Source: a virus (taxonomy: Duplodnaviria > Heunggongvirae > Uroviricota > Caudoviricetes). Taken from it: a stretch of 28,091 nucleotides of DNA. The notes beneath the pieces were generated by a model that was given only the letters and a program-made list of their open reading frames with translations, was not told where the DNA came from and did not search any database. The position numbers were made by a program, and so were the translations under genes. Location: the IMG/VR virus record IMGVR_UViG_2571042206_000004; one strand, 5' to 3'. Shown here piece after piece: positions 9,791-15,553 of the stretch; position 1 is the stretch's first letter, and each line of letters opens with the position of its first letter.

Positions 9791-10379
9791 TTAAGGTACA
9801 AAAACTCCGTTTCAGCGGTACAAATACTCCGTTTTAACGGTACAAAAAGTTTTAATTACGGTACAAATATTCCTTTTTAACGGTACAAAAATTCTGGCCT
9901 TTAATTTCAATAGCTTAAAAGGTACAAAAATTCCGTTAAATCGCTTTTAACGGTACATTTTCTCCGTTAAAAGTCCTATAAAGGTACAAAAACTCCGAAT
10001 AAGTACCTTTTAAAGCCATTTTTCCATTAACTTAAAGAATACATAAAAGGATTTCGGTACATTTTCTCCGTTCACACCCCTATAAAGGTACATTTTCTCC
10101 GCTAAGCAAATAGCCAAAATCAAGATAACGGTACAAAAACTCCGATAGGGGAGTCATAACGGTACATTTTCTCCGTTTAAAAACCCTATAACGGTACAAA
10201 AATTCCGAAGGAATGCATATAAAGGTACAAAAACTCCGGTAATGTCATTACATTGTCATGTTTTGGTCAAAATCCTTAAATATAAATCAGCTCAATTCCT
10301 GCTGGATAACTAGATTTACAAACATTATCTAATCATGTACCTTTTACGAAAACCAATAAAACCTTTCTGAACGGAATAT

Positions 10380-11501
10380 ATGGCAGAACTTATTAGGAAT
10401 TCAGATGTTTATAAAGCGAATGCATTGATTAATGCAAGCTACGCTTTGGACACTGCTGAGCAAAGAATAATTCTACTCGCCATTTTAGTTTCCAGAAACA
10501 AGAATGCAGATCTGACTGCCGAAACGATTATCGAGATTCCTGCTTCCTTATATGCCCAAAAATTTAATACAACAGTGAGCGCGGCATATAAAACACTGAA
10601 GGAAGCCGAAGATACCTTATTTGAAAGACGTTTTTCTTACACCACAATGCGAAATGGCAAGATTGAGGTGGTTCGGTCACGTTGGGTATCACGAGTTTCA
10701 TACGTTAAGGATGATGCATTATTAACGATCACCCTAGCTCCTGATGTGATTCCTCTAGTAACCAAGCTAGAAGGAACCTTTACCAAATATGCCATCGACA
10801 ATTTACGCGATGTGACCAGTAAATATGGCATCCGTCTGTATGAGTTGGTCGCTAGTTGGAAAAATTCGGATATACGTAAAACTCCTGTTTATGACTTCGA
10901 GGACTTCCGTGCCAAGATGGGCCTTCTTCCTCATGAGTATAGAGACAAGAAAAATCCCGAAAGTACGGATATGACCAACTTCAATAAACGTGTATTGAAG
11001 CCGGCAATTGATCAGATTAATAGTTTTACTGACCTGTTTATTACTGAAAAGAAAATCAAGACAGGACGTAATATCACGGGCATTTATTTTGAAGTAAGTT
11101 TAAAAACCGATAACTTCATTGAAGGCGAAGCGAAAGAAATCCATGACAGCAAGCCTTCTTCCGATTCAGCTAAAAAGACAGGCACTCCTTTAGAAAACAT
11201 TAGGCTTCCAAAAGTATCGACCCAAGAGTTTTTGGGTAGTGATCTCAGCGAAGAGGACCTTAACAAAGAGAACCCATTAAAAGAATTTATCGTTGAATCT
11301 GGCGTTTATAAGTCTGCTATTGAAAAGCCAGTAGAAGAAAAGGATGAATTTGAATTAAATGGCATAAAACGATTGTATGAGGCTCTATTAAAGCTGGATG
11401 AAGGCGTAACCAAGGAATACGTCCGCGAATATGCCCAGATTAAAGGCGTAACTCTACAACACGCATTAATTGAACTTTATAACTCTAAAAGACCGGCTTA
11501 A
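10380..11501 (+). CDS. repA: Plasmid replication initiator, Rep_3 family
   Basis: KANALINASYALDTAEQRIILLAI; RSRWVSRVSY; SKYGIRLYEL; NFNKRVLKPAIDQIN; adjacent iterons. Confidence 0.95.
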   Translation: MAELIRNSDVYKANALINASYALDTAEQRIILLAILVSRNKNADLTAETIIEIPASLYAQKFNTTVSAAYKTLKEAEDTLFERRFSYTTMRNGKIEVVRSRWVSRVSYVKDDALLTITLAPDVIPLVTKLEGTFTKYAIDNLRDVTSKYGIRLYELVASWKNSDIRKTPVYDFEDFRAKMGLLPHEYRDKKNPESTDMTNFNKRVLKPAIDQINSFTDLFITEKKIKTGRNITGIYFEVSLKTDNFIEGEAKEIHDSKPSSDSAKKTGTPLENIRLPKVSTQEFLGSDLSEEDLNKENPLKEFIVESGVYKSAIEKPVEEKDEFELNGIKRLYEALLKLDEGVTKEYVREYAQIKGVTLQHALIELYNSKRPA

Positions 11502-11617
11502 ACATTCCGGCACTTGGGTCTTTTCCGAAAACTTGGGTTTTTGAAGTGCTAACGAATAATTAAATAATACTTTCTATAATATTTAAGTTTTTATATTAAT
11601 TATTCGGAAACGATCGG

Positions 11618-12349
11618 ATGTCCCAAGTTGAAAAACAAATACCCAAGTATTTAGATTGGGCGGGTCACTTTTATGGCAATGACCTTGATTTAGAACATTA
11701 CGAAATTCTCACCATTCAATACATTCCCAAGAAAGAGCGGAAGCTAGAAACGCAGTTAATGACAACCAAGTGGTTTGACTATAGGCTGATGCATCCCATG
11801 CAAGCCACTTATTACTTCTTTCGGCTTTTCAAAAATGAATATCGAAACTTTTATAGAAAAGCTATTGATCATAAGGCGGCCGAATTCGTTAAACCCATTA
11901 AGGAGCGAGATTTCTTACTCAGCCGTGAGGCCTTGTCATTTTGGCGACTCAGACAGGCAATTGATGCTTTGGGAATGCGTTATGACTTCTATTTAAAAAC
12001 CGCATTTGATAAATGCTTTAAGGTGATTGCGAATGGTAGACCTTTGCCACCTAGACCTGCTCAACTAAAAAAAGAAGAACTGTTAATTGAAGTGTTCCAT
12101 GAGTGGGAGTCTTATTGTCAAGCTTCGCTCCAGATCGCTAAAAGTCCATATTTTACCGCTACACTTTTTCATAACAGTCCAATGCAAGTTGATTATGAAG
12201 ATTTTATTGTTAAGCAGGTGCGGATGCGTCAAGTGCAGCATTATGCATTAGGGACATGCATTTATCGCTATGATGCACTTCGCATTGAAAAAGCTTTAGA
12301 GTCTTTTGACATTTCGATCATCAACCAAGCTATTAAATCCAGTATTTAA
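11618..12349 (+). CDS. Hypothetical protein heading the phage replication operon
   Basis: 243-aa aromatic/basic ORF; no motif recognised. Confidence 0.75.
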   Translation: MSQVEKQIPKYLDWAGHFYGNDLDLEHYEILTIQYIPKKERKLETQLMTTKWFDYRLMHPMQATYYFFRLFKNEYRNFYRKAIDHKAAEFVKPIKERDFLLSREALSFWRLRQAIDALGMRYDFYLKTAFDKCFKVIANGRPLPPRPAQLKKEELLIEVFHEWESYCQASLQIAKSPYFTATLFHNSPMQVDYEDFIVKQVRMRQVQHYALGTCIYRYDALRIEKALESFDISIINQAIKSSI

Positions 12350-12373
12350 TGCTTTTTTCTCTTAAAATATTAA

Positions 12374-12383
12374 TAAGCGCTTA
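12374..12383. promoter_or_regulatory. Palindromic motif TAAGCGCTTA (class I site)
   Basis: The reverse-strand context TTATAG-TAAGCGCTTA-TTAATA matches the 14328 site. It is ~55 nt upstream of the Hfq-like gene. Confidence 0.65.
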
Positions 12384-12436
12384 CTATAATTTGATAATAT
12401 CGTTTTTATAGTAATTACTAATGTTTCGAGGTTTTA

Positions 12437-12868
12437 ATGAGCGAATGGCAGAAAGAACTTGCGATACAAAACAAGTTCGGCAATAGCGCTCCAATTTCAA
12501 AGGAGTCTATTTACTTAAATACGGAAGAAAAGCAAAAACTTCAATTTCAGCCGCGTAAAACGTATGGGCGTAGGCTGCCTGCGAACGAATGCGAAATTGA
12601 AGAAATGGGCTACATGAAGTTTGTTCGCAAGCTGCAAGAGCAAGAACAGGAAATTGTAGTCATTAAAACAGACGGCGAAGTTGTGCGTGGATACATCCGT
12701 GCTGCGGATGCAGAAACGATCTCGCTTCGTTGTTATTTGAATGGTGATAAAAACGGTCGTTATCGTGCGCGTGTTCTTTTCAAACACCAAATTTCCGAGT
12801 TCTCACCAACTAAGGGGATTGAAGACCTAGTTGATGAGCTAGAGAGAAAGTCGAAATCTAAATCTTAA
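12437..12868 (+). CDS. Hfq/Sm-like protein with ~55-aa N-terminal extension
   Basis: Manual alignment to E. coli Hfq: FVRKLQEQEQEIVVIKTDGEVVRGYIRAADAETISL vs [36 protein letters not shown], and LFKHQISEFSP vs VYKHAISTVVP (Sm2 motif). Confidence 0.75.
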   Translation: MSEWQKELAIQNKFGNSAPISKESIYLNTEEKQKLQFQPRKTYGRRLPANECEIEEMGYMKFVRKLQEQEQEIVVIKTDGEVVRGYIRAADAETISLRCYLNGDKNGRYRARVLFKHQISEFSPTKGIEDLVDELERKSKSKS

Positions 12869-12904
12869 ACGTAAGCCATCTATTTTCTATAAGGATTATC
12901 TTAT

Positions 12905-14308
12905 ATGTCTACTGCTGTGGCCGAAATTCATGAAGAAGAGGTCGTTGATAAAGAACTCGAAGGCTTCACCGAAGAAAAGTTTGATTACGACGATGAGTTT
13001 CAATCAAAAATTGCGGCTTTAACTTTACGTGACGATGAGTTTCTTAGAAGAGCCGCCCATATTCTGAAGCCAGAATTTTTCGAAAATCAGGGTGAAGCAT
13101 GTCTGGTCGATATTGCGCTCCAACACTTCAATAAATATGGATGTTCTCCTGATCCTGCTTCTGTTGTCCAAATTATCAAGGATAAAGCTGCTTCTAAAGT
13201 TTATAAGCGAGAAACTTTAGCGGCAATTGTGGAAGCAAGGAAGAAATTAATTGGCATCTATGTCACTGACAAGGCTTTCGTTGAAGAAAAGGTTGTTGAG
13301 TTCGCGCGAAAACAGGCGGTATCCAATGCGATTGTTAATTCTGTTCCTGATCTTGAGGCAGGGAATTACGCCAAGATTGAAGCGCGTATCAAGGAAGCTA
13401 TTGCGGTCGGATTGAATGAAGAGGGTGTTGGTTATGACTTCTTCGCTCAGGCGTTGAATCGTAAGCTGGCACGTATCGAGAAGCTGACAGGCAAAGTACC
13501 TCCGACAGGCATTACTACTGGCTGTAAAGAACTTGATGATCTGCTGTATCACAGAGGTTGGGGACGCAAGGAGCTGTCTCTATTAATGGGCGGTGCAAAA
13601 GCAGGTAAGACGCAAGCGCTTATTCACTTTGGCCGTATCGCAAGCTTTGCTAAATACAACGTTCTATATGTAACGCTAGAAGTTGGTAAAGACATTATTG
13701 CAGACCGTTTAGATGCCTCTATTTCAAAAGTGATCATGAAAGAATTGGCGTCGAAGGCTGCAAGTGTTGCAACTGCGGTCGAGACGGTAGCCAAGACGGC
13801 GGGCAAATTTATTATTCATGAATTTGGTTCCGGTACATTTTCTCCGTCACAGCTAAGAGCATTAATTGATAGGTATAAGAATCCTGGGCGGAACCCTGAT
13901 GGAACGATAAGACCGCCAATCAAGTTCGATATGATCATTGTGGACTATGCAGATTTGATGCGTCCAGATATTCGTACAAATGACCCAAAAGAGAACTCAA
14001 GAGTTGTCTATGTTGATTTACGCGCGATTGCTTTTGAAGAGAATGTGGCGTTACTGACAGCTACTCAGACCAACCGTGAGGGCTTTAAGTCAACGGTAGC
14101 CAAGGCAGAGCACGTAGCTGAGGACTTTAACAAAATCAGGACCGCTGACGTTGCAATCTCCATCAACATTACAGAGGAAGAGAGAGCGAAAGGTCAGGCT
14201 CGATTGTACTTTGCAGCTTCTCGAAACCAAGAGATGGGGGTTACTGTGGTGATTAAGCAGAATGTGTCCATGATGAGGTTCTTGGAAGAAGTGATTAGCG
14301 TCGAATAA
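12905..14308 (+). CDS. Replicative DNA helicase, DnaB/T4 gp41-like (SF4)
   Basis: Walker A GGAKAGKT; LYVTLE; Walker B IIVDYADLM; TATQTNR; ADV motif. Confidence 0.92.
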   Translation: MSTAVAEIHEEEVVDKELEGFTEEKFDYDDEFQSKIAALTLRDDEFLRRAAHILKPEFFENQGEACLVDIALQHFNKYGCSPDPASVVQIIKDKAASKVYKRETLAAIVEARKKLIGIYVTDKAFVEEKVVEFARKQAVSNAIVNSVPDLEAGNYAKIEARIKEAIAVGLNEEGVGYDFFAQALNRKLARIEKLTGKVPPTGITTGCKELDDLLYHRGWGRKELSLLMGGAKAGKTQALIHFGRIASFAKYNVLYVTLEVGKDIIADRLDASISKVIMKELASKAASVATAVETVAKTAGKFIIHEFGSGTFSPSQLRALIDRYKNPGRNPDGTIRPPIKFDMIIVDYADLMRPDIRTNDPKENSRVVYVDLRAIAFEENVALLTATQTNREGFKSTVAKAEHVAEDFNKIRTADVAISINITEEERAKGQARLYFAASRNQEMGVTVVIKQNVSMMRFLEEVISVE

Positions 14309-14327
14309 ATTTAACCCAATATTATAG

Positions 14328-14371
14328 TAAGCGCTTATTTATAAATTTGTGCTAGTATAAATAAGCGCTAA
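14328..14371. promoter_or_regulatory. Inverted pair of class I sites (TAAGCGCTTA and TAAGCGCTAA) forming a 14-bp inverted repeat
   Basis: AGCGCTTATTTATA (14330-14343) and TATAAATAAGCGCT (14356-14369), 12-nt spacer, upstream of primase. Confidence 0.7.
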
Positions 14372-14395
14372 TTTTATCTAATGCGATTTTGCAAT

Positions 14396-15490
14396 ATGAG
14401 CGATCAAGAAAGTTTAGCGGAGATATTAGACCGCATTGATATGGAGTATTGGCTTAACCGCGAAGGGTTTGAATACAAAGTAACTCGCGGAAAAAACGGA
14501 ATCCAGTTGAATGTTAAGGAATGTCCGGTATGTGGTAACTCAAGCTGGAAAGTCTATCTGAATCAGGATACGGGTTTGGGTAACTGCTTTCATGGTGATT
14601 GCGAAACCAAATTCTCGAAATGGAAGTTTATTAAGGCTGGTATAGGCGGTAATAGCCTAAGCAATAAAGAGATAGTCGAGCATGTTAAAGCAATTGCTCA
14701 GGAGCAGGGCTGGCAGCCAAAGCGCAAAAGTGAACCCACACAAACCAAAATTGGCGATCTAAAGCTTCCAAAAGCCTATGACTTGCCGATCATGGGTCAG
14801 AACCTAAAGTACCTTAAAGAGCGAAATATAACGCTCGATACGTGTCGTGAATTTGGACTGAAATTCTGTCAAAAGGGTTGGTTTGCATACATAGGCCCAA
14901 CGGGTGAAAAGCAATACCAAAACTACAGCATGAGAATCATCATTCCTGTCAGGGACCTTGAAGGCAAGCTTGTGTCTTTTCAGGGTCGGGACATTACAGG
15001 AAAGGCTGAAAAGAAGTATCTATTTCCTCCTGGTTTCGCGTCTACGGGCACTTACCTATATAACGGCCATAATGCCCTAGGTTACGTTGAAATCGTCATG
15101 GGAGAGGGTGCTTTTGACGCTATGGCGATATATCAAGCCTTCAAGGAAGACGAGTTCCTTTGCAATGTTGGAGTTGTCGCGTCATTTGGTAAGCATCTTT
15201 CGGTAGGTGGTGATGAATCTCAAATGGCTGAACTACTAAAGCTTAAAGATGAGGGATTGGAGTGCGTGACGATTATGTGGGATGGAGAGCCTGCCGCAAT
15301 TCTGTCTGCGATCGACGCATGTTTAAAGATAAATAGCTTTGGCATAAAAGCAAGGTTGGCCACGTTGCCTGCTGGATGTGACCCCAATGAAGTCGACCCT
15401 GAAATCGTTCGCACAGCGTATCGAAAAGCGATACCAATTACGCCAATTAGCGCAGTAAGTTTACGCATTAAGTATATGGGTAAAGTCTGA
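14396..15490 (+). CDS. DNA primase (zinc-binding + TOPRIM)
   Basis: CPVC...CFHGDC zinc domain; IIIPVRDLEGKLVSFQGR; TOPRIM MGEGAFDAMA and MWDGE. The start is 14396 or 14381. Confidence 0.9.
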   Translation: MSDQESLAEILDRIDMEYWLNREGFEYKVTRGKNGIQLNVKECPVCGNSSWKVYLNQDTGLGNCFHGDCETKFSKWKFIKAGIGGNSLSNKEIVEHVKAIAQEQGWQPKRKSEPTQTKIGDLKLPKAYDLPIMGQNLKYLKERNITLDTCREFGLKFCQKGWFAYIGPTGEKQYQNYSMRIIIPVRDLEGKLVSFQGRDITGKAEKKYLFPPGFASTGTYLYNGHNALGYVEIVMGEGAFDAMAIYQAFKEDEFLCNVGVVASFGKHLSVGGDESQMAELLKLKDEGLECVTIMWDGEPAAILSAIDACLKINSFGIKARLATLPAGCDPNEVDPEIVRTAYRKAIPITPISAVSLRIKYMGKV

Positions 15491-15553
15491 ATCGTATTTG
15501 ATTCCAAATCATTGTTTTTAAAATATTGTTGAAGTTTTCAAGGTGCTTTTACT

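Follow-up and report, generated by a model that had tools for sequence, protein, structure and literature searches.

The central matchmaker of RNAs in Gram-negative bacteria is Hfq, a protein originally discovered as a host factor for an RNA phage. In plasmids of Thermococcus and the Methanococcales, a zinc-finger-Hfq-like gene adjoins a helicase gene in the same transcription unit, and the authors who described it speculated on a role in replication (PMC3543421). According to the title and abstract of another report, the Bacillus anthracis plasmid pXO1 bears a paralogue of Hfq (PMC5348863). Here we describe an Hfq-like protein encoded in a 28,091-nucleotide stretch of viral DNA (IMG/VR record IMGVR_UViG_2571042206_000004; the whole stretch is called the window below) from a phage-plasmid of the Acinetobacter pABTJ2 type. 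The gene (12437-12868; this and all other features given by coordinates lie on the plus strand) started with ATG, was preceded by a GAGG ribosome-binding site at 12428-12431, 5 bases upstream, and encoded a protein of 143 amino acids (P0001) that was the same as WP_000005905.1 of pABTJ2, annotated as "hypothetical protein". The protein matched phrog_5258, a family of unknown function in PHROG, from end to end. Our analysis identified it as a very divergent Hfq consisting of a complete core, an N-terminal extension of 57 residues, and a short C-terminal helix. Together with its relatives, it appears to represent a branch of the Hfq family marked by coupling to a helicase gene, by the N-terminal extension, and by loss of the rim and distal surfaces.

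A preliminary description, made by reading the DNA sequence, had called the product an Hfq/Sm-like protein, and this was borne out by Pfam, by a family profile, and by structural modeling and comparison. With the single sequence as query, residues 62-128 matched positions 5-63 of the 64 positions of Pfam Hfq (PF17209) with an E-value of 2.4e-4 and a score of 21.1 bits, which falls below the gathering score of 27; with TIGR02383, the equivalog model of the canonical RNA chaperone Hfq, the score was 14.1 bits against a cut-off of 61.7. A sequence search of PDB with phmmer gave Hfq chains as the only matches, and the alignments spanned helix 1 to the sequence FKHQISEFSP, which was paired with YKHAISTFAP of Hfq. 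The family alignment was assembled from two large searches, and the family was small and diverged. All 21 aligned members matched Pfam Hfq, with a best E-value of 6.7e-9, and the profile of these 21 sequences matched Hfq 3ahu in PDB with an E-value of 1.6e-7 and 20 more Hfq entries with E-values below 0.01. A profile of 39 sequences was aligned with the Hfq of the host by hhalign with an E-value of 4.9e-6, and the identity of the core of the Hfq-like protein to host Hfq was 20%. The preliminary description had held that absence of a Sm fold would speak against the assignment; such a fold was predicted by AlphaFold2 (AF2) from the family alignment, with a helix (alpha1, residues 59-68) and five strands (beta1 to beta5, residues 72-77, 82-90, 94-100, 109-115, and 119-124) and a predicted local distance difference test score (pLDDT) above 90 in the core. 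The top 50 matches of the model in a Foldseek search of PDB were all Hfq, and an overlay of the core on Escherichia coli Hfq with VIA paired 62 of 62 residues with a Z-score of 11.3 and a root-mean-square deviation of 1.0 Å. The Sm2 motif F-K-H-x-I-S was of the Hfq type and not of the archaeal or eukaryotic type, and the heptapeptide LFKHQIS, previously read at 12776-12796, was confirmed as residues 114-120. A weak Pfam match to CAK-anch_MAT1 (E-value 0.025) was treated as chance. These results indicated that membership of the protein in the Hfq branch of the Sm fold is secure.

The Sm core of the Hfq type extended over residues 56-126 (12602-12814) and contained the Sm1 residues G80, G85, and D91, of which G85 and D91 were present in 39 of 39 family sequences, and the Sm2 motif F115-K116-H117-Q118-I119-S120. 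An insertion in the beta3-beta4 loop (L4) had been noticed in the preliminary description and was present, but it comprised 9 residues relative to host Hfq in the hhalign alignment (residues 101-109, 12737-12763) and not about 11. Across the family, the L4 segment varied from 5 to 23 residues, compared with 4 in Hfq; given this variable size, the insertion does not appear to be a defining feature of the family. The N-terminal extension (residues 1-57, 12437-12607), which had been put at about 55 residues, was predicted to form a helix at residues 2-15 followed by a low-confidence linker, with pLDDT below 50 for residues 21-53. Five of its residues (W4, E7, F14, F37, and Q38) were invariant among the Acinetobacter relatives, and Q11 was kept in at least 90% of the 39 family sequences. 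The extension was basic in most relatives, with a charge of +3 to +7, and neutral in the pABTJ2-type protein. A close variant of P0001, P0003 (87-89% identical), differed only in the N-terminal linker, at residues 9-35, in a way that resembled a compensated frameshift; this pattern suggests that the linker may be under little constraint. The C-terminal tail, described earlier as basic, was found not to be simply so: the last 19 residues comprised a predicted acidic helix and then a short basic KSKSKS at the end, with a net charge of 0. The predicted helix (residues 129-142, 12821-12862) included the sequence IEDLVDEL and was conserved only in the Acinetobacter clade. Many betaproteobacterial Hfq-like proteins (L030, L032, L034, L036, L037, L040, and P0025) shared a short C-terminal motif, such as TEEGHAV, EGQSA, or EGNA, that was absent from the Acinetobacter protein, which carries the IEDLVDEL helix there; this motif might be a docking peptide.

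In Hfq, the rim patch of R16, R17, and R19 is required for RNA annealing, the distal A-R-N site with Y25, I30, and K31 serves A-rich RNA, and the proximal uridine pocket consists of Q8, Q41, F42, K56, and H57, with F42 stacking on the uridine. We compared these surfaces by using the alignment of the 39 family sequences and the hhalign alignment with host Hfq. At the proximal pore, Y55, K56, and H57 of Hfq corresponded to F115, K116, and H117 of the Hfq-like protein, and across the family Phe and Lys were found in 39 of 39 sequences and His in 38. The rim arginines R16, R17, and R19 corresponded to Q67, E68, and E70; in the family, the R16 position was Glu or Gln in 37 of 39 sequences (28 and 9, respectively) and the R19 position was mainly Gly or Asn. 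The distal residues Y25, I30, and K31 were replaced by I76, E81, and V82, and the Y25 position was Glu in 24 of the 39 sequences. In the uridine pocket, Q8, Q41, and F42 corresponded to Y59, A92, and E93, and the family had mainly His, Lys, and Tyr at these places, and the F42 position was aromatic in 30 of 39. The net charge of helix 1 was approximately -1 in most family members, and the position of Hfq Q52 was a nearly invariant Arg (36 of 39). By this comparison, one of the three surfaces of Hfq appears to be conserved, and the rim and distal surfaces appear to have been lost. Because the rim arginines and the distal site were absent and the F42 position was Glu, the protein is unlikely to be a classical matchmaker of small RNAs (sRNAs) and mRNAs or a stand-in for host Hfq, and the earlier suggestion that it rewires sRNA control lost ground on the same residues. 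The most conserved stretch of the family was RV-(I/L)-FKH-D-ISEF, which covers beta4-L5-beta5; in Hfq, the equivalent strands line the proximal pore and hold adjacent subunits together. From this conservation, the single argument for a ring, the Hfq-like protein probably forms one.

To place the gene in its genomic context, relatives were drawn from assemblies, species-representative genomes, and IMG/VR, which gave about 30 distinct elements and near-identical copies of the pABTJ2 type; the loci were gathered by similarity to the Hfq-like protein, so that the presence of its gene in them is by construction. The relatives were mainly on contigs of 85-118 kb and included those of Betaproteobacteria and Massilia. 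The order of the genes for a 243-residue protein, the Hfq-like protein, the DnaB-like helicase, and the primase was found in every collected locus (about 30 distinct elements, 23-69% identity), and the block usually continued with a ligase and then a guanylate kinase. The Hfq-like protein was the least conserved member of the block, with mostly 22-45% identity outside the immediate Acinetobacter clade, compared with approximately 50-60% for the helicase and primase. A tblastn search with P0001 and P0027 against a cultured phage collection gave no matches; helicase homologues with 37-45% identity were found in cultured phages of 103-122 kb, and a homologue in the cultured Pseudomonas phage nickie surfaced through the helicase neighbourhood and profile comparison. 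The replication block thus appears to be common to a large clade of tailed phages and phage-plasmids of approximately 105-120 kb, including nickie. The homologue of nickie had no Rep3 initiator nearby, which suggests that it serves phage-type replication or expression and not Rep3-driven plasmid maintenance. In SSU5 and the Rhizobium phage RHEph10, the homologue of the 243-residue protein directly adjoined DnaB with no Hfq-like gene between them, and the family profile gave no match over the whole SSU5 genome. Therefore, the module appears to be built on the 243-residue protein, helicase, and primase, with the Hfq-like gene as an insert that is frequent yet dispensable, that is, accessory by gene content. 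The synteny across SSU5- and pHCM2-like elements that the preliminary description envisaged was consequently not found, and the element belongs to the pABTJ2 type. In the slot before the helicase, open reading frames (ORFs) of 68-69 residues with a Sm1-like G..G..D pattern recognized by eye were seen in Stenotrophomonas phage BUCTxx99 (L050:3281-3490) and Xanthomonas phage JGB6 (L054:2286-2492); neither matched the family profile significantly (E-values of 0.38-2), and they may be further diverged Sm-like proteins. Two other relatives showed irregularities in the block: the helicase ORF of L033 (6149-8962) encoded 937 residues, about twice the normal length, with an intein as a possible cause, and an HNH/NUMOD4-like gene was inserted between the helicase and primase genes of L002 (4128-5141).

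Upstream of the Hfq-like gene, a promoter-like site (12362-12390) consisted of TTAAAA, a 17-nucleotide spacer, and TATAAT, and the spacer contained the palindrome TAAGCGCTTA (12374-12383). The preliminary description had assigned the gene a class I site of its own, and this element is real and lies between the -35-like and -10-like hexamers. The gap between the 243-residue protein gene and the Hfq-like gene contained the motif GTCA-N4-TGA-N1-2-TATAAT in 25 of 28 non-redundant relatives, and 37 occurrences were found in total across the loci of these relatives. The equivalent in the window was TAAGCGCTTA-CTATAAT (12374-12390), in which the element is fused to the -10 box; copies of the palindrome also preceded the genes of the holin (8279) and the primase (14328 and 14362). 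The helicase gene (12905-14308) encoded a DnaB-like replicative helicase of 467 residues (Pfam DnaB_C, E-value 1.3e-11; phrog_19, 1.2e-86) and was separated from the Hfq-like gene by 36 nucleotides, with a ribosome-binding site, AAGGA, at 12891-12895. In most relatives, with start codons picked mechanically, the stop codon of the Hfq-like gene overlapped the DnaB start by 1-4 nucleotides or the two were no more than 2 nucleotides apart. Overlap of stop and start codons is the usual signature of translational coupling. The gene of a DnaG-type primase, recognized with Pfam and PHROG, followed at 14381-15490. The conserved promoter-like motif upstream therefore suggested that the Hfq-like and helicase genes form a conserved transcription unit headed by the Hfq-like gene, and by gene arrangement this gene comes first in a unit that runs into the DnaB-like helicase within the replication block; the location just before the helicase in a replication block, and the view of the element as a phage-plasmid, had both been proposed previously and were both supported.

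Transcript data were also inspected. The stretch occurred as contigs in 14 RNA-seq runs from 8 studies, although contigs alone are no proof of transcription, and two raw-read RNA-seq runs had no reads on the stretch and were uninformative on expression. In RNA-seq run X12, a contig that covered rep and most of the 243-residue protein gene ended at 12104 and had a mean depth of 60.6, and a separate contig from 12190 onward, with the Hfq-like, helicase, and primase genes, had a mean depth of 9.98. The depths give a weak hint that the unit of the Hfq-like and helicase genes is transcribed separately from rep, and less than rep, in the carried state. Searches of the window with Rfam and ARAGORN found no RNA family or tRNA-type match.

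We judge the chances to be about even that the Hfq-like protein is an accessory, single-surface nucleic-acid-binding ring, which is made with the helicase and acts with helicase and primase in phage-type replication. The protein would assemble as a ring, and the ring would bind single-stranded nucleic acid or a 3' end via the pore-proximal face, perhaps with the aid of the basic N-terminal arm in most relatives; it would then act with the helicase or primase as an accessory factor. At the origin or fork, for example, it might handle single-stranded DNA or the 3' ends of RNA, or it might assist or regulate the helicase. Among the roles offered in the preliminary description, that of a nucleic-acid-binding replication factor seems to be the best fit, by synteny and translational coupling. 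A more specific form of this proposal, that a six-fold Sm ring is made in step with the six-fold DnaB-like helicase and docks on the helicase or on the 243-residue protein, aids loading or regulation, or keeps RNA primer 3' ends or single-stranded DNA in place at the fork, is unlikely on present grounds. Several points weigh against a replication role. Gene order alone cannot tell such a role from post-transcriptional control of replication genes, and the gene was dispensable in SSU5 and RHEph10, so that the protein is not a core loader. The Sm core was approximately neutral and helix 1 lacked a basic character, features unusual for a protein that binds nucleic acids. Furthermore, most family members pair an aromatic residue at the F42 position with K56 and H57, and by these residues it is quite possible for the family that the proximal face binds U-rich RNA and that the role is thus an RNA-regulatory one.

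Such an RNA-regulatory role, the main rival to our reading, would make the protein a phage RNA chaperone or post-transcriptional regulator. The retained proximal face of the ring would bind phage or host RNAs at U-rich 3' ends or leaders and tune their stability or translation, and adjacency to the helicase would reflect timing of co-expression only; autoregulation, with the helicase-primase messages as targets, is one version. Membership of the protein in the Hfq family, the invariant K56 and H57, the aromatic residue at F42 with Lys at Q41 in 30 of 39 sequences, and the annotation of two relatives as an RNA chaperone or RNA-binding protein of the Hfq type all agree with this explanation. However, the rim arginine patch and the distal site were absent family-wide, the Q8, Q41, and F42 positions were Tyr, Ala, and Glu in the pABTJ2-type protein itself, and there was no Rfam RNA family in the window; nor would a general RNA regulator need the tight coupling to DnaB and the fixed position. 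We therefore consider an RNA regulator somewhat improbable, and retain the accessory replication ring as our working interpretation.

A dedicated helicase loader would also occupy this position. By this explanation, the Hfq-like ring, and not the 243-residue protein, opens the DnaB-like hexamer or brings it to the origin. The gene is indeed in the classic loader position, directly upstream of the helicase and translationally coupled to it, and no DnaC-like or other recognizable loader was found in the block. In comparisons with Pfam, NCBIfam, and PHROG, the Hfq-like protein had no match to loader families (DnaC/IstB AAA+, lambda P, and SPP1 G39P), and Hfq was the only family matched. SSU5 and RHEph10 keep the helicase, the primase, and homologues of the 243-residue protein with the slot between them empty, whereas an essential loader would not be dispensable, and the universal 243-residue protein is the better candidate for a loader or initiator; a loader function of the Hfq-like ring is accordingly doubtful. 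The gene of the 243-residue protein (phrog_2500; 11618-12349) was upstream of the helicase in every relative examined, and its homologues included SSU5_038, RHEph10 gp031, and nickie gp118. The AF2 model of the protein was all-alpha with a pLDDT of 93.5. A fold search found no match in PDB (best Foldseek E-value 0.64; best Z-score 4.9 in a wide VIA search), and comparison with AFDB returned uncharacterised relatives only. From its conservation and position, the 243-residue protein is a probable core partner of the helicase and a candidate initiator or helicase loader.

Subversion of host Hfq, which the preliminary description had raised as poisoning of host rings, by co-assembly with host subunits or by competition for partners so that the host sRNA network is disabled or redirected, is very improbable: the Sm fold is common to both proteins, the FKH-ISxF strands resemble the Hfq subunit interface, and the host carries a canonical Hfq, but the core identity to host Hfq is so low, the same locus occurs in phages of very different hosts (Acinetobacter, Betaproteobacteria, and Pseudomonas) and with the helicase coupling points to a phage-internal partner, and nothing specific speaks in its favour. 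We also considered a stand-in for a single-stranded-DNA-binding protein (SSB) and rejected it; Pfam SSB was undetected in pABTJ2, the 107-kb plasmid, nickie, and BUCTxx99, and also in SSU5 and RHEph10, which have no Hfq-like gene, so that there was no complementary pattern.

Positions 10300-15500 of the window were 100% identical to pABTJ2, a circular A. baumannii plasmid of 110,967 bp; more than 120 similar plasmids showed the same identity. The pABTJ2-type plasmid of approximately 111 kb was represented by at least 128 sequenced Acinetobacter plasmid records, mainly from clinical A. baumannii, and IMG/VR files stretches identical to the DNA of the window as viral contigs. The window contained a giant tail-fibre gene, a lysozyme gene, a Rep3 initiator gene behind iterons, ParA, an integrase-family gene, a helix-turn-helix repressor gene, and CobT/CobS-like genes. 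The Rep3-family plasmid initiator (RepM; 10380-11501) was found only in Acinetobacter lineages among the relatives. About nine iteron-like repeats with the core GGTACA(AAAAC/TTTTC)TCCG were seen upstream of its gene at 9905-10239, and this array matches the oriV iterons described for pABTJ2 (PMC4411360). The pABTJ2 paper reported "many phage-like elements" and a Rep-3 replicon and did not mention Hfq (PMC4411360). We consider phage-plasmid a fair label for the element, of the Acinetobacter pABTJ2 type and not of the SSU5/pHCM2 type. In the nearest available genome with near-identical DNA, a canonical hfq gene (103.6 bits) was found together with the Hfq-like gene (21.3 bits), and the canonical hfq encoded a long Gly-rich tail. 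Such a long Gly-rich tail is typical of Acinetobacter Hfq. The host thus keeps its own canonical Hfq beside the Hfq-like gene of the element.

No paper on an Hfq-like gene of pABTJ2, of phage-plasmids, or of nickie-like phages came up in a literature search, and what is already known is that database annotators call two relatives Hfq. A gene labelled "hypothetical" in most records can now be named. If the replication role is true, it would extend the known functions of Sm rings. In the docking form of the proposal, Sm proteins would take part directly in the way a large clade of phages and phage-plasmids replicates its DNA, with the helicase-linked Hfq-like genes of archaeal plasmids as a parallel case. 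The protein would also be a natural one-surface Hfq with which the functions of the surfaces could be dissected. If it is an RNA regulator instead, it would be a handle, carried by phages, on how an important hospital pathogen expresses its genes.

Compared with bacterial Hfq (PF17209; E. coli, A. baumannii, Bacillus subtilis, and Listeria monocytogenes), the Hfq-like protein agrees in the Sm fold across all 62 core residues, in the G..G..D of Sm1, and in the F/Y-K-H-x-I-S of Sm2. It differs in that it adds an N-terminal extension of 57 residues and not a C-terminal tail, has the 9-residue L4 insertion, lacks the rim arginines and Y25 (Ile), has Glu in place of F42, and has its gene in the helicase operon of a phage-plasmid. 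Phage nickie encodes a homologue, gp117 (89 residues, "hypothetical"), which was supported by hhalign (E-value 1.6e-7), by the family hidden Markov model (5.7e-11), and by its second rank in a structural search of BFVD. Like the gene described here, it occupies the slot between the homologue of the 243-residue protein and DnaB and overlaps the helicase start; unlike it, gp117 has a short N-terminal extension and FKS in Sm2 instead of FKH, and nickie is a phage in culture whose genome record is linear and 112 kb long, without a Rep3 plasmid initiator near this locus. A homologue of gp117 in Nican01 is annotated as "hfq: RNA-binding protein Hfq". A further relative is WP_000614153.1, "RNA chaperone Hfq", of A. 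baumannii plasmids of approximately 107 kb, a sister phage-plasmid lineage in the same host. It showed 40% identity over the Sm core, and its locus has the order Rep, hypothetical protein, Hfq-like protein, DnaB, primase, and ligase. WP_000614153.1 is longer (179 residues), with a longer N-terminal extension, and it is named Hfq by the Prokaryotic Genome Annotation Pipeline (PGAP), whereas the pABTJ2 protein is "hypothetical".

The plasmid-encoded paralogue of pXO1, likened here by description and not by sequence, belongs to a Gram-positive host, and the title and abstract of the report give no link to a helicase or replication; as described there, it is likewise an extra Hfq on a large extrachromosomal element beside the chromosomal Hfq. 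The zinc-finger-Hfq-like protein of Thermococcus is archaeal, its gene is downstream of the helicase gene, and its N-terminal module is a C2H2 zinc finger. Nevertheless, it resembles the protein of the pABTJ2-type phage-plasmid in combining an Hfq-like domain with an extra N-terminal module and in being linked to a helicase, and this association with a helicase, compared with ours by fold only, is probably an independent parallel.

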